Below are positions 1-6,421 of a stretch of 9,826 nt of DNA, piece after piece. A program made the position numbers and the translations under genes. The DNA comes from a virus. Taxonomy: Duplodnaviria; Heunggongvirae; Uroviricota; Caudoviricetes. The notes under the pieces were generated by a model. It saw only the letters and a list, made by a program, of their open reading frames with translations. It was not told the DNA's origin and did not search any database. Location: IMG/VR virus record IMGVR_UViG_2619619132_000009. One strand, written 5' to 3'. Within the stretch, counting starts at the first letter, position 1, and the number at the start of each line of letters is the position of its first letter.

Positions 1-124
1 TCGGTTTACGGGAAACGGTAAACAGGGCGGCGAATGCCCTGCCATCGGACGGCACCGCCGTTGCCGCGAACAGGCTGGCAAATGCCCACACAATTAATGG
101 TGTTCCCTTTGACGGGACGCAGGA
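1..124. repeat. Left copy of the inverted repeat flanking the invertible tail-fibre segment; may extend upstream of the window
   Basis: Positions 1-124 are the exact reverse complement of 1196-1319 (checked base by base; identity breaks at 125/1195). Confidence 0.9.
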
Positions 125-353
125 TATCACTATCTCATCAGGAACAGTAACCGCCATAAGACTGGGGTCGGTGACCGCACATATGCCCGGAACATGGGAA
201 AGCTGGGATCTGAATCTGGGGGGCGGCAATGTTCTTACCGGAATTAAAGTACAGGATGTCGGTAAGAATACGGCAGATAACGTCGGCGGCGTGTATTACC
301 GGCCGTTGCAGTATCTGTTAAATGGAGCATGGGTGACGGCTGCAAGTATATAA
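1..353 (+). CDS. Phage tail-fibre protein, C-terminal portion (5' end lies upstream of the window); currently expressed tip Sv
   Basis: Open frame from position 3 to TAA at 351-353 with no stop (GLRETVNRAANALPSDGTAVAANRLANAHTINGVPFDGTQDITISSG...YYRPLQYLLNGAWVTAASI). Motifs are typical of side tail-fibre C-termini. A Tfa gene and an invertase gene lie adjacent. Confidence 0.8.
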   Translation, partial: GLRETVNRAANALPSDGTAVAANRLANAHTINGVPFDGTQDITISSGTVTAIRLGSVTAHMPGTWESWDLNLGGGNVLTGIKVQDVGKNTADNVGGVYYRPLQYLLNGAWVTAASI

Positions 354-361
354 TGATATTC

Positions 362-387
362 AGAAGGCCTTCCGGCCTTCTTTATTA
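362..387 (+). terminator. Stem-loop between the convergent tail-fibre tip and tfa genes, probable intrinsic terminator
   Basis: Perfect 8-bp stem AGAAGGCC/GGCCTTCT with a TTCC loop (362-381), followed by TTATTA. It lies between the Sv stop (353) and the tfa stop (385). Confidence 0.45.
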
Positions 388-906
388 CTGTGGCTGCTCA
401 GGCCATTTAATGGCGTTAAATTCAGCTTCTGTTTTAATGGCGGGTAGTTCCATTTTCTTCACCTGACTGATGTATGCCATCCATTGGGTAAGTGCTGCTC
501 TGTCTTCATCGCTGATGGTGCCCAGTTGTAGCTCCGTTCTCCAGTCATTAATTTTTTCATATGCCTGATTAAGATATGACTGGCGCATTGCTTCCAGTTT
601 TCTTGCGTAGTTAACCGGAATACGGGAGATTATGCCATTATCAAACTTCCAGTTTCCTGAAATATCCGTGCCTTCAGGGAGTTCATCGACCTCAACCACA
701 GAAAACCCCGCAGGATACAGCGCCGAGGCGTCCTGTGATATTGAGCAGATAACGCCGCTGTCAGGTGTTATGCAAAGTTTATATTTTTTGGTGAATAATG
801 GCAGGGATTCGTAGAAATCCTTACCATCTTCACTCTGGAAATACTGAACATTATTACCATATGGCATATTTTCAGGATAATAACGGGTTATATTTTTTAG
901 TTCCAT
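385..906 (-). CDS. tfa: Tail-fibre assembly chaperone (Tfa family)
   Basis: 173-aa ORF with a strong RBS (AGGAGG, 5-nt spacer, ATG). The C-terminal region (...DRAALTQWMAYISQVKKMELPAIKTEAEFNAIKWPEQP) resembles the conserved Tfa C-terminal domain. It sits directly downstream of the minus-strand fibre tip. Confidence 0.8.
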   Translation of the reverse strand: MELKNITRYYPENMPYGNNVQYFQSEDGKDFYESLPLFTKKYKLCITPDSGVICSISQDASALYPAGFSVVEVDELPEGTDISGNWKFDNGIISRIPVNYARKLEAMRQSYLNQAYEKINDWRTELQLGTISDEDRAALTQWMAYISQVKKMELPAIKTEAEFNAIKWPEQPQ

Positions 907-957
907 AAAATCCTCCTGGAAATAAATCTGTTTTAAAATATATTATTTACTGACTAT

Positions 958-1319
958 TTATAACTGAGATACCGTAATCCATGTACCTCCGACTAATTTT
1001 TGCAGGGGTCTGAATGCTATAAAATCGTTTGAAGCATCAACTTTACTGTCAATCTGCAGGCCTGCCATAACATTACCGTACGCAGAGTAATATGCCCCAC
1101 CGTACATTACCTGCCTGTTCTCTGCTCCCAGCCTGATATCCTGGATATATCGGGAATCCGCATCCTGCTGTGTTATACCAGAAGTGATGTTTATGTCCTG
1201 CGTCCCGTCAAAGGGAACACCATTAATTGTGTGGGCATTTGCCAGCCTGTTCGCGGCAACGGCGGTGCCGTCCGATGGCAGGGCATTCGCCGCCCTGTTT
1301 ACCGTTTCCCGTAAACCGA
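958..1319 (-). CDS. Alternative tail-fibre C-terminal cassette (Sv'), without its own start in this orientation
   Basis: Hand translation of the minus strand continues in frame from the right inverted repeat to a TAA at 958-960 (...GTQDINITSGITQQDADSRYIQDIRLGAENRQVMYGGAYYSAYGNVMAGLQIDSKVDASNDFIAFRPLQKLVGGTWITVSQL). It ends in the same RPLQxLxxGxWxT motif as the plus-strand tip and has no in-frame start codon. Confidence 0.6.
1196..1319. repeat. Right copy of the inverted repeat of the invertible tail-fibre segment
   Basis: Exact reverse complement of 1-124. Confidence 0.9.
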
Positions 1320-1331
1320 GGTTTTCAGGAA
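1306..1331. other. Putative gix/hix-like crossover site for the serine invertase (12-2-12 dyad)
   Basis: TTCCCGTAAACC-GA-GGTTTTCAGGAA: two imperfect 12-bp inverted half-sites (10/12 match) around a central GA. It resembles the recalled Mu gix site (TTCCTGTAAACCGAGGTTTTGGATAA) and sits at the outer edge of the right repeat, 65 bp before the invertase start. The left partner would be centred on window position 1. Confidence 0.5.
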
Positions 1332-1396
1332 AGCCAGGATTAACTCTGTTTTATTCCTCATGCGACAATTCCGGCTTTTTATAATAAGGAAATCGT

Positions 1397-1969
1397 ATGC
1401 TGATTGGGTATATCAGGGTGTCAACAAATGACCAGAATACGGCGCTACAAAGAAATGCGCTGGAATGTGCAGGATGTGAGCTGTTTTTCGAAGACAGAAT
1501 AAGCGGTAAGACAAGGGAGCGTCCCGGACTTAAACGCGCATTAAAGCGACTCCGGCCAGGGGATACCCTGCTGGTCTGGAAACTGGATCGCCTTGGACGC
1601 AGTATGCAGCACCTTGTCCTTTTAACAGAAGAACTCCGGCAACGCGGCGTTAACTTCCGCAGCATTACGGACAATATTGATACATCCACTCCCATGGGAC
1701 GTTTCTTTTTCCATATAATGGGCGCGCTGGCGGAAATGGAGCGGGAACTCATTATTGAACGTACACGCGCGGGTCTTGCTGCTGCCCGTGCTCAGGGGCG
1801 TCATGGCGGCAGACCTCAGAAACTGACAGAGAAAGAGCGGGAGCAAATCGCCCGTTTGCTGGCTAATGGCGAGTCCCGTAAACAAATCGCACTGATATTT
1901 GATATTGGCCTTTCCACCCTTTATCGTTATTTTCCTGCCTCACCAGCTCCGTCACCAAAAGTACCGTGA
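1397..1969 (+). CDS. pin: Serine DNA invertase of the Gin/Pin/Hin family
   Basis: 190 aa, MLIGYIRVSTNDQNTALQRNALECAGCE...VWKLDRLGRSMQHL...MGRFFFHIMGALAEMERELIIERTRAGL... Near-collinear with Mu Gin and e14 Pin as recalled, with the catalytic Ser in the RVST motif and a C-terminal HTH. Preceded by RBS AAGGA. Confidence 0.9.
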   Translation: MLIGYIRVSTNDQNTALQRNALECAGCELFFEDRISGKTRERPGLKRALKRLRPGDTLLVWKLDRLGRSMQHLVLLTEELRQRGVNFRSITDNIDTSTPMGRFFFHIMGALAEMERELIIERTRAGLAAARAQGRHGGRPQKLTEKEREQIARLLANGESRKQIALIFDIGLSTLYRYFPASPAPSPKVP

Positions 1970-2054
1970 CGCTTTTTTGAATTTCCGCAAAACACATATT
2001 TTTCAGCGGTCGCTATTCTGACTCTGTTTAATTCAGAAACAGGCAGAAAAGACG

Positions 2055-4109
2055 ATGTCAGACTCCAAGTGGAAAATGCTCTCCGCCATGCCCGGAGAGT
2101 TTTCAGTCAAGGTTGCCGGTGGCACGGTGGCATTTATTGAAAGCCCTTTCCGCCCTTCGGGTAATAAAGGGGGGATCACCTTCGCAGACTGCGTGATCCG
2201 CTTCAGCACGAAAGAGCCATTATGGGTAATGCCGGTATCCGGTAATCCCAGTGCAGAAATCACCAGTTCAGGCGTGACTGGCATCATTCCAATCACATCT
2301 GACGTGGCCGGAACGCTCACGCCCTCCGACTGGAATGCACCGGATAACGCCGGGCCTTCCGGTAGCACGAATGGCAGCAGTTCAGAGCCGGAATATTACT
2401 TTGTTGTCATTCTCGCGGGTCAGTCAAATGGCATGGCCTACGGCGAGGGGCTGCCGTTACCGGATTCGTTTGACCGCCCGGACCCACGCATTAAGCAACT
2501 GGCACGCCGCAGTACGGTAACGCCCAACGGTACGTCGTGTACATACAACGACATCATTCCGGCAGACCACTGCCTGCATGATGTTCAGGATATGAGCGGG
2601 ATAAACCACCCGAAAGCTGATCTGGCAAAAGGCCAGTACGGGACTGTCGGTCAGGGGTTGCATATTGCCAAAAAACTGCTTCCCTATATCCCACAGAATG
2701 CCGGGATACTTCTGGTGCCCTGTTGTCGTGGCGGGTCAGCATTCACCACTGGAGCCGACGGCTCATTCAGTGAGGCCAGCGGTGCTTCCGCTGATTCTTC
2801 ACGCTGGGGGGCCGGTAAACCTCTGTATCAGGACCTGGTAAGCCGCACCAAAGTCGCGCTGGCGAAAAACCCGAAAAACAAACTTCTGGCTGTGGTCTGG
2901 ATGCAGGGAGAGGCAGACCTTGCCTCAGGAAGCCAGCAGCATAATAGTTTATTCACGGCCATGGTTCAGCAGTTCAGAACTGACCTGGCTCCGCTTGCTG
3001 CGCAGTGCGTGAGTGGAAATGCCACCACGGTGCCGTGGATTTGCGGTGATACCACGTATTACTGGAAAAACGCTGGCACCGATAAATATGAGGCAGTATA
3101 CGGTGGCTACAAAGGCAAGGAAGCACAGAAAATTTTCTTTGTACCGTTCCTGACGGATGAGAATGGACAGAGCACGCCAACGAATGCTCCGGCGGAAGAC
3201 CCGGATATTGTGGCTGTCGGGTATTACGGTGCAGCATCCCGAACCCAGGGCAGTTTTGTTTCGACACAGCGTGACAGCCATTTCAGCTCATGGGCACGCA
3301 GGGGCGTCATTTCAGACCGTCTGGCCTCAGCTATTATGCTCCATGCAGGGCGCACGGCTGAACTGATGCGCGGGCAGACCGTGACACCACCGGATGAGAA
3401 GCCGTCACCTGATACACCATCAAAACCGTCCACGCCACCCGCAGACACCACGACGATGAGTACGCTATTTGCTTACCGGGCATCTGAGTCTGAAGGACGG
3501 TTGACACCACAGGGTTGGGCTGCCGGAGGTGGCAAGGCTCAAATCGTGGATGATGCCGGAGCCAGCGGGGGTAAGGCAATGAAACTGACCAAGGAAACAG
3601 GAAGAGCCCCCTGGTACCTTGAGCATGATGCTGGTAATGGTGCGGACCTGCTGGGTAAAGGTGGTCTTGTCAGTTGTCGTTTTAAACTCGATGGCGCGCT
3701 TACGGCTAATCAGTACGCACTGGCGCTGTACTGGCCGGTTTCTGCCCTGCCGCAAGGGGTTACTCTGGAAGGAAATGCCGGTCATAACCTGCTGGCATCG
3801 TTCTACGTACAGAGCGATGCCACAGACCTTAACGTGATGTATCACAAAGGAAACACGGCGCAGAACACGAAGCTGGGGTCATTCGGCGCATTTAATAACG
3901 AATGGCATACGCTGGGCTTCCGTTTTGCCGGTAACAACAGTATTGAGGTGACGCCGGTCATTGATGGTAAGGACGGGACACCATTCATGCTGTCGCAGTC
4001 TCCGGTCGGCACGTTTACGGCAGACAAGTTGCGCGTGACCGATATCACTAAAAATGCGACTTACCCGGTACTGATTGACAGTATCGTGGTGGAAGTGAAT
4101 AACGCGTAA
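2055..4109 (+). CDS. Prophage NanS-p-like sialate O-acetylesterase (SGNH/SASA esterase) with N-terminal extension and C-terminal lectin-like domain
   Basis: 684 aa. The core YYFVVILAGQSNGMAYGEGLPLPD...PRIKQLARRSTVTP...GILLVPCCRGGSAFT...VWMQGEAD resembles recalled E. coli NanS/YjhS and prophage NanS-p proteins. A P/T/S-rich linker (PPDEKPSPDTPSKPSTPPADTTT) is followed by about 230 aa that look like a beta-sandwich carbohydrate-binding domain. Confidence 0.6.
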   Translation: MSDSKWKMLSAMPGEFSVKVAGGTVAFIESPFRPSGNKGGITFADCVIRFSTKEPLWVMPVSGNPSAEITSSGVTGIIPITSDVAGTLTPSDWNAPDNAGPSGSTNGSSSEPEYYFVVILAGQSNGMAYGEGLPLPDSFDRPDPRIKQLARRSTVTPNGTSCTYNDIIPADHCLHDVQDMSGINHPKADLAKGQYGTVGQGLHIAKKLLPYIPQNAGILLVPCCRGGSAFTTGADGSFSEASGASADSSRWGAGKPLYQDLVSRTKVALAKNPKNKLLAVVWMQGEADLASGSQQHNSLFTAMVQQFRTDLAPLAAQCVSGNATTVPWICGDTTYYWKNAGTDKYEAVYGGYKGKEAQKIFFVPFLTDENGQSTPTNAPAEDPDIVAVGYYGAASRTQGSFVSTQRDSHFSSWARRGVISDRLASAIMLHAGRTAELMRGQTVTPPDEKPSPDTPSKPSTPPADTTTMSTLFAYRASESEGRLTPQGWAAGGGKAQIVDDAGASGGKAMKLTKETGRAPWYLEHDAGNGADLLGKGGLVSCRFKLDGALTANQYALALYWPVSALPQGVTLEGNAGHNLLASFYVQSDATDLNVMYHKGNTAQNTKLGSFGAFNNEWHTLGFRFAGNNSIEVTPVIDGKDGTPFMLSQSPVGTFTADKLRVTDITKNATYPVLIDSIVVEVNNA

Positions 4110-4124
4110 GCAGGATAAAAAAAT

Positions 4125-4157
4125 GCCGCCGGTAAGGGAAAACAAGAAACCGGCGGC
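4125..4157 (-). terminator. GC-rich stem-loop flanked by A-runs on the plus strand (T-runs on the minus strand); terminator-like, orientation favours leftward transcripts
   Basis: 9-bp perfect stem GCCGCCGGT/ACCGGCGGC (4125-4133, 4149-4157), preceded by AAAAAAAT and followed by AAAAAG. Confidence 0.35.
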
Positions 4158-4253
4158 AAAAAGATCGTTATATCCAAAGCAAAAAATGCAGTGCACCTTT
4201 TTACCTAACAGATATTACCGGTGTCAACACCATGTCAATAATTGGGAGGGATA

Positions 4254-4436
4254 ATGACATTTTTACAGCTTATTTTATTGTATTTCTGCACGGCAGTATG
4301 TGCGTTATATCTGGTGAGTGGTGGTTATAAGGCCATCAGAAATTATGTTCGCCGCAAAATTGAGGACGCAGCAGCTGAAAAACTCAGTAAAACAGCGCAG
4401 GTAACTCCGCTCCCAAAAGACCCGACCCAGCCCTGA
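4254..4436 (+). CDS. Small hypothetical membrane protein (60 aa, one N-terminal hydrophobic helix)
   Basis: RBS GGGAGGG (4244-4250) then ATG at 4254. MTFLQLILLYFCTAVCALYLVSGGYKAIRNYVRRKIEDAAAEKL... The track's TTG at 4242 overlaps the RBS, so 4254 is preferred. Confidence 0.5.
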   Translation: MTFLQLILLYFCTAVCALYLVSGGYKAIRNYVRRKIEDAAAEKLSKTAQVTPLPKDPTQP

Positions 4437-4471
4437 TTGCAGGGCTTTATTCCCGCATAAGGAGGATATAC

Positions 4472-4726
4472 ATGCCAGAAATTAAAGGCACCGTCACTGA
4501 AGACCTGGTAAAACAGGCACTGTATTCCGGTGAAGTAAATAAGTTGCTGAAAGCGCAGGTCCGCAAGGATTTTGAGGCACAAATCGACACTTACGTTGAT
4601 GAAGTGCTGGCAAAACTTATTGGGCCAGCAGTTGCGGCCAGTGATGCTGATAATGAGCCGAAAACCGACGCGCAGCCAGAGCAACCAGACCCGGCTCAGC
4701 CCGGAACTGACAGTACCATGATGTAA
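4472..4726 (+). CDS. Small hypothetical protein (84 aa, acidic Pro-rich C-terminus)
   Basis: Strong RBS AAGGAGG with a 6-nt spacer before ATG 4472. No recognisable family. Confidence 0.55.
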   Translation: MPEIKGTVTEDLVKQALYSGEVNKLLKAQVRKDFEAQIDTYVDEVLAKLIGPAVAASDADNEPKTDAQPEQPDPAQPGTDSTMM

Positions 4727-4731
4727 CAATA

Positions 4732-4759
4732 CAAACCGGTGGTGTCCTCTGCCGGTTTG
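4732..4759 (+). terminator. Weak stem-loop after the 84-aa ORF
   Basis: CAAACCGG...CCGGTTTG 8-bp stem with a 12-nt loop immediately after the stop at 4724-4726; no clear U-tract. Confidence 0.3.
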
Positions 4760-4986
4760 ACACTAATGAAAACATCTTTGCCGCTATCCAGCCATATGTA
4801 ATCGCTGGATAGTATTTCGTATTCAGAAATATAGCTGCTTATGGAGCAGTCAATCCTGCTTCCCCATCCGGGCAGGCAAATGAACCGGTATCATTAGTCC
4901 GATTCACGCTTTTGTAGAATCGTTCCCAGAATGCTATACAGCTCATTAGCCTGTTGCTCCATCATTGAGACGGAGGCTATACGGTG

Positions 4987-4995
4987 CAAAGTGAT
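4987..4995. repeat. Left 9-bp target-site duplication of IS1 (CAAAGTGAT)
   Basis: Identical 9-mer directly abuts both IS1 ends (4987-4995 and 5764-5772). Confidence 0.85.
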
Positions 4996-5050
4996 GGTAA
5001 TGCTGCCAACTTACTGATTTAGTGTATGATGGTGATTTTAAGGTGCTTGC

Positions 5051-5326
5051 GTGGCTTCCATTTCCATCAGATGTCCTTCCTGCTCCGCTACTGAAGGCGT
5101 GGTGCGTAACGGCAAAAGTACTGCCGGATATCAGCGCTATCTCTGCTCTCATTGCCGTAAAACATGGCAACTACAGTTCACTTACACCGCCTCTCAGCCC
5201 GGTAAGCACCAGAAAATCATTGATATGGCCATGAATGGCGTCGGATGTCGCGCCAGTGCACGCATTATGGGCGTTGGCCTCAACACGGTTTTACGTCACT
5301 TAAAAAACTCAGGCCGCAGTCGGTAA
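5051..5326 (+). CDS. insA: IS1 InsA (zinc-finger/HTH transposition regulator)
   Basis: [43 protein letters not shown]...[14 protein letters not shown], 91 aa, GTG start. Confidence 0.9.
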
Positions 5327-5763: not shown

Positions 5764-5772
5764 CAAAGTGAT
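5764..5772. repeat. Right 9-bp target-site duplication of IS1 (CAAAGTGAT)
   Basis: Identical to 4987-4995. Confidence 0.85.
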
Positions 5773-6154
5773 TTCAGGAGGTGGCACACCTCCATCTTCT
5801 TGCTGTGGAGGAAAAACATAAGATTTAATAAAAAAGTTGAAGCATATGAACTCTCCCGCACTCGAACTGTATTTGCAGGCATCTGAATAATCGGAAAAAT
5901 AATCATTATAGATTTCCGCATTTTCAATCATTTTTCGATTTCTCGTCGTTACATGATTGTCCATAGCAGCCTCTTACGCTGGCAATTAACCAATTGACTT
6001 CTATAAATTAGTTGATTTGTTTGCTTTGCGGTATTCAAATGTACAATCATTCAGCACTTATGCGTTACAGCACCGTTTAAAATTAGTGATCAAACTCATA
6101 AATTTTCGCTAATGACATTTCGTGTTATTTGTTGTATCAATTAAATAAATCAAA

Positions 6155-6177
6155 TCGATCGTTTTTGTCGATCGATT
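6155..6177. promoter_or_regulatory. Perfect palindrome ATCGATCG-N7-CGATCGAT carrying two Dam (GATC) sites, upstream of com-mom; candidate methylation-sensitive operator
   Basis: 8-bp perfect inverted repeat with a 7-bp T-rich spacer. GATC at 6157-6160 and 6170-6173, with a third GATC at 6088-6091, all within about 135 bp upstream of the com ATG in an AT-rich divergent intergenic region. Confidence 0.45.
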
Positions 6178-6220
6178 GAGTGATAAAGATATCAACAACA
6201 AAGCAGGAGGTTATGCGGCC

Positions 6221-6421
6221 ATGTATCGAAACATACGGTGCCGACATTGTAACAAGCTACTGGCACGAGCCAGCTTCAGTTATCTGGAAGTTAAATGTCC
6301 GCGCTGTAAAACCCTCAATCAAATCACATCTCAGAGCGCCACAGAGCACCCCACATACACAAGGAAATCCTGTCGTGGGGAACAGAAAGCAAGTTACATC
6401 CCGTATCATCAGCACGCCTGA
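6221..6421 (+). CDS. com: Com-like zinc-ribbon translational activator (phage Mu Com family)
   Basis: [35 protein letters not shown]... has Cys at 7, 10, 26 and 29 (CxxC-N15-CxxC) and strong resemblance to recalled Mu Com (MKSIRCKNCNKLL...IRCPRCK). RBS AGGAGG lies 10 nt upstream; the 3' end overlaps the next gene. Confidence 0.75.

Follow-up and report, generated by a model that had tools for sequence, protein, structure and literature searches.

The subject of this work is a pair of small open reading frames (ORFs), here called ORF-A and ORF-B, in a 9,826-nucleotide stretch of viral DNA (the window) deposited as IMG/VR record IMGVR_UViG_2619619132_000009 and assigned to the Caudoviricetes. 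The window corresponds to the right-hand end of a Mu-like prophage and carries, in this order, tail-fibre genes, gin, an esterase gene, ORF-A, ORF-B, an IS1 copy, and com/mom. An earlier reading of this DNA from the letters alone (the sequence-only reading) had noted two well-initiated ORFs of 60 and 84 codons, 35 bp apart, between the esterase and IS1, and had taken them for prophage accessory cargo of no recognisable family. The coordinates, sizes and gap are exact, and both neighbours were correctly named. The pair is indeed cargo of a Mu-like prophage, located with the esterase between gin and com/mom, and its relatives sit in the "moron" (accessory gene) slot in the late region of Shiga toxin lambdoid phages. 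The genes concerned, together with their Shine-Dalgarno motifs as read from the sequence, which bear out the consensus-like ribosome-binding sites noted earlier, are the following.

2055-4109, plus strand: NanS-p-type sialate O-acetylesterase, 684 amino acids (aa), with Pfam SASA and DUF6645 domains (phrog_143, E 1.7e-296)
4244-4250, plus strand: Shine-Dalgarno motif GGGAGGG of ORF-A, about 4 nt before the ATG
4254-4436, plus strand: ORF-A, ATG start, DUF1378 protein of 60 aa (Pfam, PHROG, substitution rates)
4460-4465, plus strand: Shine-Dalgarno motif AGGAGG of ORF-B, 6 nt before the ATG
4472-4726, plus strand: ORF-B, ATG start, DUF826 protein of 84 aa (Pfam, PHROG, substitution rates)

That no family is recognisable is true of inspection by eye only: Pfam and PHROG profiles identify both proteins, with Pfam scores far above the 25 bits used as the cut-off for assignment to either family. 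ORF-A matches PF07125 (DUF1378) with 109.4 bits (E 9.4e-32), its residues 1-58 aligning with positions 1-58 of the 59-position profile, and matches phrog_494 with an E-value of 1.3e-32. ORF-B aligns with PF05696 (DUF826) over residues 1-57 (profile positions 1-58 of 75; 58.7 bits, E 6.4e-16), its tail being too variable for alignment to the Pfam profile, and matches phrog_311 over its full length (E 4.9e-28). Identical proteins are named in RefSeq as "DUF1378 family protein" (WP_000143468.1) and "DUF826 domain-containing protein" (WP_001114100.1), and the region is present at 100% identity in 14 complete Escherichia coli genomes. Both families are already catalogued, and to that extent the finding is an ordinary one that holds nothing surprising for a specialist.

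For comparative analysis we assembled 87 sequences, namely, the window and 86 fetched loci (80 from IMG/VR, the identical region of the E. coli chromosome NZ_CP147059, phage VT2-Sakai, a Mu-like phage inserted in a Shiga toxin (Stx) 2c phage, and 3 Citrobacter farmeri contigs). The homologous ORFs from these loci comprise 27 (ORF-A) and 32 (ORF-B) distinct DNA sequences. The median pairwise ratio of nonsynonymous to synonymous substitution rates (dN/dS) is 0.19 for ORF-A and 0.26-0.31 for ORF-B; the annotated frames are free of stop codons in every variant, and the other five frames all accumulate stops, including the frame of a long antisense ORF over ORF-B (4343-4729). The open annotated frames and the low dN/dS values show that these are not chance ORFs: ORF-A and ORF-B are real protein-coding genes under purifying selection.

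Conservation of the pair across related prophages, proposed earlier as a check and as a refuting condition should it be lacking, is strong and syntenic. Among the 87 sequences, esterase, DUF1378, and DUF826 follow one another in this order in 85; the other two start too near DUF1378 to tell, and two loci added later (L088 and L093) have the arrangement as well. The spacer between the esterase and DUF1378 measures 134-167 nt in all 28 insertion-free variants (144 nt in the window). This three-gene cassette, of which the esterase is the first gene, occurs on Mu-like backbones with gin, on a Mu-like backbone without gin (L088), and on lambdoid backbones with an S21-type pinholin; in one contig (L093), it lies upstream of a holin of a different family, Phage_holin_2_3. 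The esterase of the window lacks a signal peptide, judging from its translation, and its N-terminal 100 aa are of a Mu type that replaces DUF1737. Searches with tblastn found DUF1378 in 309 phage records, nearly all of them from Stx phages, compared with 347 records in the phage collection that contain the esterase. In lambdoid and Stx phages, the cassette occupies the moron slot of the Q-dependent late operon, directly upstream of the holin, and in hundreds of Stx phages the pair is located no more than about 3 kb downstream of the Shiga toxin genes and directly upstream of the lysis genes.

VT2-Sakai carries the pair between the nanS-p esterase and the S21-type pinholin. Its DUF1378 (PHROG 494) gene, an unannotated 59-aa ORF between nanS-p and S, shares with ORF-A the invariant membrane helix MTF...LYFC..VC.LYL.SGGY, the length, a full-length profile match, and the position right after the esterase spacer; ORF-A differs in belonging to the Mu-like prophage branch, being 52% identical to the Stx-phage copies. 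The DUF826 (PHROG 311) counterpart corresponds to the C-terminal 81 aa of VT2-Sakai orf43 and has in common with ORF-B the helical core, the variable acidic, proline-rich tail, and the terminal Met-Met(-Met/Leu), whereas the identity of ORF-B to the Stx-phage proteins is about 39% and no holin follows it. The deposited annotation of this part of VT2-Sakai (L002, 5001-5466) does not include the DUF1378 ORF (5001-5180), and the first 58 residues of the 139-aa "orf43" are an out-of-frame overlap, the true start of DUF826 being at 5221. In some Stx2a phages, ORFs bearing the DUF1378 and DUF826 names have been annotated between nanS-p and the holin gene S (PMC10462455), as a single sentence in the one paper retrieved that names both families; literature searches on locus tags and product names returned nothing.

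In one hybrid locus (L071; IMG/VR 2617270951_000022, 96-5136), gin and an esterase of the Mu type (99% identity to the window) precede a DUF1378, DUF826, S21 pinholin, and endolysin of the lambdoid type. The two types of cassette thus recombine, and Mu-like and lambdoid prophages appear to do so via the cassette they share. The dependence is one-sided, in that the esterase also occurs without the pair: in YYZ-2008-type Stx1 phages, the esterase retains all three domains and the pinholin is the same one, yet both small genes are missing. ORF-A and ORF-B are almost certainly genuine DUF1378 and DUF826 genes that make up the fixed distal half of a mobile esterase cassette; what is new here is the strict tie of the pair to the esterase across unrelated backbones. 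A related esterase gene was also seen in the P2-like phage vB_EcoM-569R5 (L099, 5001-6251), right after holin, endolysin, and LysA genes, in a record that ends inside the gene.

The physical description of the two proteins given by the sequence-only reading, namely, an N-terminal transmembrane helix and basic tail in the first and a soluble, acidic, proline-rich second protein, holds up. ORF-A (pI 9.3) has a single hydrophobic stretch at residues 3-24, with a Kyte-Doolittle 19-residue maximum of 2.27, followed by a segment with a net charge of +4 (residues 25-50). Its AlphaFold2 model is one helix spanning residues 3-50 with a short disordered tail, the part from about residue 24 to about residue 50 being predicted as a basic amphipathic helix. 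The alignment of the family has 17 invariant columns, mostly within residues 1-25, and the invariant positions of the membrane helix (L9, Y10, F11, V15, L18, Y19, L20, S22, G23, G24, and Y25) are a part of a segment that is conserved to an equal degree in the Mu-like and lambdoid versions. By prediction, ORF-A crosses the inner membrane once and places its basic helix in the cytoplasm, the N-out/C-in topology to which the positive-inside rule points.

ORF-B (pI 4.2) is devoid of hydrophobic segments, and its tail (residues 51-84) contains 6 prolines, carries a net charge of -6, and ends in Met-Met. The AlphaFold2 model places a short helix at residues 10-17 and a long amphipathic one at 20-50, followed by a disordered acidic, proline-rich tail; the predicted local distance difference test score exceeds 90 at residues 21-50 and stays under 50 over much of the tail (60-73 and 81-84). 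Conservation within DUF826 maps to the helical core (S19, R31, E35, D39, V42, D43, L46, and G51), and a hydrophobic C-terminal tip (MM, MMM, MML, or TML) is present in most of the aligned long forms. The prediction for ORF-B is a cytoplasmic protein made of an acidic helix and a disordered tail.

DUF826 is a small family: a profile search of 1.84 billion representative proteins retrieved 55 clusters only, none with a known function. Long, tailed forms are accompanied by DUF1378 wherever neighbouring sequence is available. Short relatives of about 60-77 aa, which lack both the tail and a DUF1378 neighbour, are found in prophages and prophage remnants of Pantoea and other enterobacteria, mostly just after Rz/Rz1 or a holin-endolysin-Rz cassette; in one prophage, the gene lies about 2.7 kb past the lysis genes and just before the terminase genes. 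The N-terminus of the short forms is a conserved tryptophan-rich amphipathic peptide (MKITQWLKSLI, MWITQWLF, or MWIKDWLF) with the pattern of a putative membrane-surface anchor. The DUF826 core thus appears to be membrane-directed, which is a second new point. Four of our loci (L087, L091, L094, and L102, at about 5950-6177) contain short DUF826 genes, which in the last three are downstream of lysis genes, the L087 contig being too short. A DUF1378 pattern scan of GTDB, with one genome per species, retrieved no relative, and the Qin and DLP12 prophages of Escherichia coli K-12 have no relative of DUF826 or DUF1378; the K-12 genes ynfO and ybcW, which we had suspected to be homologues, were rejected, ynfO being a DUF3950 gene.

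For both ORFs, a hairpin had been reported downstream. This proved correct for ORF-B; the small stem between ORF-A and ORF-B, however, is no more stable than shuffled sequence (z 0.02).

4732-4759: stable hairpin that closes the esterase/ORF-A/ORF-B unit (dG -16.7 kcal/mol; z -4.21; none of 200 shuffles as stable)

This hairpin lacks a U-tract and is therefore not a canonical intrinsic terminator; hairpins of other sequence are found at the matching position in two Mu-like loci (L003 and L088). No convincing rightward promoter or terminator was detected in the spacer between the esterase and ORF-A, and none was found between gin and the esterase, so that the pair is probably expressed by read-through from the esterase, each ORF being translated from this mRNA with its own strong ribosome-binding site. 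The nanS-p gene depends on Q for its transcription, which rises by 1-2.4 logs upon mitomycin C induction; basal expression occurs without induction (PMC10462455).

The spacer itself contains an element on the opposite strand.

4117-4227, minus strand: candidate Esr41-like small-RNA gene, convergent with the esterase and upstream of ORF-A
4227-4222 and 4203-4198, minus strand: candidate promoter of this gene, -35 TTGACA and -10 TAAAAA separated by an 18-nt gap
4158-4124, minus strand: GC hairpin of the candidate RNA, whose body is about 75 nt, followed by a run of seven T at 4123-4117

All 28 distinct spacer variants have a TTGAC-type -35 (TTTACT in one), a gap of 17 or 18 nt, and TAAAAA (TAAAAC in one), then a body of about 70-100 nt, a hairpin of 9-14 bp, and a run of 4-8 T. 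The hairpin core CCGCC/GGCGG is invariant, with compensating changes in the flanking pairs, and the element of the window folds with a z of -4.45. These marks of a small-RNA gene in the spacer are the third new observation, and the element looks like such a gene, convergent with the esterase. Its top Rfam match, over the whole model, is the EHEC small RNA Esr41 (RF02676), with which it has in common the minus-strand orientation, the length of about 75 nt, the U-rich body, the CCGCC/GGCGG terminator stem, the U7 tail, and the full-model alignment. The difference lies in the scores, which at 22-31 bits (22.2 bits, E 0.12, in the window; 30.9 bits in VT2-Sakai) are far below the gathering score of 102 bits; we treat this as a resemblance only. 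Genuine Esr41 is located on the SpLE1 island (PMC5286369).

The candidate RNA lies 26-137 nt upstream of the ORF-A start and overlaps neither its ribosome-binding site nor its coding region. In YYZ-2008 (L097, 5351-5799), the 450-nt gap is free of small ORFs; it contains the spacer element twice and, just before the holin, a hairpin and T-run on the plus strand. Two small RNAs, PasA and PasC, have been described between esterase and holin genes (2026 preprint), PasA being in YYZ-2008 (NC_011356). In lambdoid phages, STnc100 and AsxR/AgvB are found upstream of the esterase; none of these is present in the window.

As for function, our preferred reading, to which we assign a probability of roughly 0.35, is that DUF1378 and DUF826, tethered to the membrane as a pair, modulate a late envelope or lysis step. 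DUF1378 would insert into the inner membrane N-out/C-in, and its helix, whose unusual conservation suggests a specific membrane partner, would make that contact. Its basic amphipathic cytoplasmic helix would recruit the long amphipathic helix of the acidic DUF826 protein, the flexible acidic tail and Met-Met tip of which may reach a third partner. At the cytoplasmic face of the inner membrane, the complex would then tune the envelope or lysis step by which virions and the signal-less esterase are released. Two properties of the wider DUF826 family count in favour of this scheme: the short forms without DUF1378 have their own tryptophan-rich N-terminal peptide instead, in support of the membrane link, and the family is mostly found beside lysis genes, in support of the lysis link. 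Considered as a whole, with identity, expression, and mechanism together, this is the best explanation at hand, and one we put forward tentatively, at less than even odds. A bolder version, in which a previously unrecognised two-component membrane-tethered regulator travels with the sialate esterase and controls when or whether the envelope opens to let out the enzyme and, in Stx phages, toxin and virions too, with the Esr41-like RNA as a second layer, seems to us decidedly unlikely; it would amount to a new kind of lysis or release accessory beside the Shiga toxin genes.

The logic of the preferred reading would be akin to that of holin accessories such as the RI/RIII antiholin pair of phage T4, by analogy and not by homology. 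RI and RIII are two small phage proteins, one membrane-anchored and the other cytoplasmic and helical, that jointly modulate a lysis step, and this division into an anchored and a cytoplasmic helical protein is the likeness to DUF1378 and DUF826. No sequence relation was found (no Pfam match), and the functional domains differ in place, that of RI being in the periplasm and that of DUF1378 presumably in the cytoplasm. A partial likeness exists also to the S21 pinholin of phage 21 and Stx phages, the immediate downstream neighbour of the pair in lambdoid phages: like the helix of DUF1378, its second membrane helix leads into a short, basic tail in the cytoplasm. However, S21 has two membrane helices as opposed to one in DUF1378, and profile-profile comparison detects no homology.

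Several observations weigh against a role in lysis. No homology links either protein to this process, and what suggests an interaction between DUF1378 and DUF826 is adjacency and charge only. In Mu-like prophages, the pair is far from the lysis genes, and its absence from YYZ-2008-type phages shows that it is dispensable for the esterase and lysis functions there; the late-region location may simply mark a site at which lambdoid phages accept cargo. Homology of DUF1378 to the S21 pinholin family (Phage_holin_2_1) was rejected (hhalign probability 0.4%; one hydrophobic segment), and ORF-A has no holin match in Pfam. When the profiles of the two families were run against the sequences of the Protein Data Bank (PDB), no match fell below E 0.3; NCBIfam yielded chance-level matches only, and in PADLOC-DB there was no match for ORF-A and a chance-level one for ORF-B (E 0.0076, 12.9 bits). 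The Foldseek search that had been proposed earlier, run with the DUF826 model, produced no PDB match and one meaningless BFVD match, although little is to be expected from models that are single helices. Two apparent fusion proteins (P0201 and P0239), considered as evidence of interaction, look like frameshift or deletion artefacts.

The alternative that survives best, rather unlikely in our estimate, is that the pair is an accessory dedicated to the esterase, which it would, for example, tether under the membrane, chaperone, or release without full lysis, the DUF826 tail binding the DUF6645 or N-terminal domain. DUF1378 and long DUF826 were never seen without an esterase immediately upstream, on at least three backbones and with two holin families; furthermore, the esterase has no signal peptide of its own, and the cassette stayed intact despite internal recombination in the hybrid L071. 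Such a role is harder to reconcile with the pairless esterases of YYZ-2008-type phages and the excess of esterase over DUF1378 records (347 versus 309), and with the short DUF826 relatives in prophages that lack the esterase; the chromosomal nanS operon, too, is not known to include such a pair.

Less probable still would be a lysogenic-conversion or superinfection-exclusion module, in which the DUF1378 helix binds a protein of the host inner membrane (a transporter or a route of DNA entry, for instance) and the pair protects or re-programmes the lysogen. The gin gene is expressed in Mu lysogens, and the Mu-like cassette follows gin with no terminator between them; the position is typical of morons in both phage types, nanS-p shows the basal, uninduced expression cited above, and the membrane helix, equally conserved in Mu-like and lambdoid versions, hints at a common target, possibly one of the host. 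Yet the PADLOC search returned no match above chance level, the lambdoid genes belong to the Q-dependent late operon, and no promoter of their own was found.

We consider a type I toxin-like arrangement very improbable. In it, DUF1378 would act as a small toxin of the membrane under the control of the small RNA encoded convergently upstream. A 60-aa single-helix membrane protein and a conserved minus-strand promoter and terminator, antisense to the read-through mRNA, would suit it, but the candidate RNA misses both the ribosome-binding site and the coding region of ORF-A, the element is present twice in YYZ-2008, which is devoid of DUF1378, and DUF1378, whose ribosome-binding site is strong and exposed, invariably comes with DUF826. 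That the ORFs are non-functional hitch-hikers or annotation artefacts, as their shortness, the antisense ORF across ORF-B, and the original miscall of the VT2-Sakai region as one 139-aa ORF might suggest, is scarcely credible given the selection results above and the conservation of length and start across 52% (ORF-A) and about 39% (ORF-B) protein identity.

Esterase, toxin, and virions all exit by phage-mediated lysis, so a pair that tunes lysis would bear on toxin release. The linkage to the esterase and the place beside toxin and lysis genes make DUF1378 and DUF826 reasonable candidates for a targeted experiment.

The remaining features of the window concern the right end of the prophage.

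1397-1969: gin invertase gene, after the tail-fibre and assembly genes of an apparent invertible segment
4996-5763: IS1 copy, 768 bp, compared base by base with NZ_CP147059 (L001)
6176-7112: com/mom, beyond IS1

In phage Mu itself, the position between gin and com/mom is not known to carry such genes as the esterase and the small pair. IS1 is flanked by a 9-bp target duplication, CAAAGTGAT, at 4987-4995 and 5764-5772. It lies outside the esterase/DUF1378/DUF826 cassette and interrupts an 86-aa minus-strand ORF that is intact in NZ_CP147059 (12795-13055 of L001); at the position of this split ORF, the Mu-like variant L003 (8503-8697) has a 64-aa minus-strand ORF with paired CxxC motifs. At the other end of the window, 171-1384 contains C-terminal fragments of tail fibres and a tail-fibre assembly gene in opposed orientations beside gin, which looks like an invertible G-type segment, and identity with NZ_CP147059 stops at 1282, possibly an inversion boundary. 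The prophage terminates at about 7240 within an Ag43-type autotransporter gene, the rest of which occupies 7242-9200. The identical prophage end adjoins another gene in NZ_CP147059, so the element occupies different chromosomal sites in different strains, as expected for a transposable phage.

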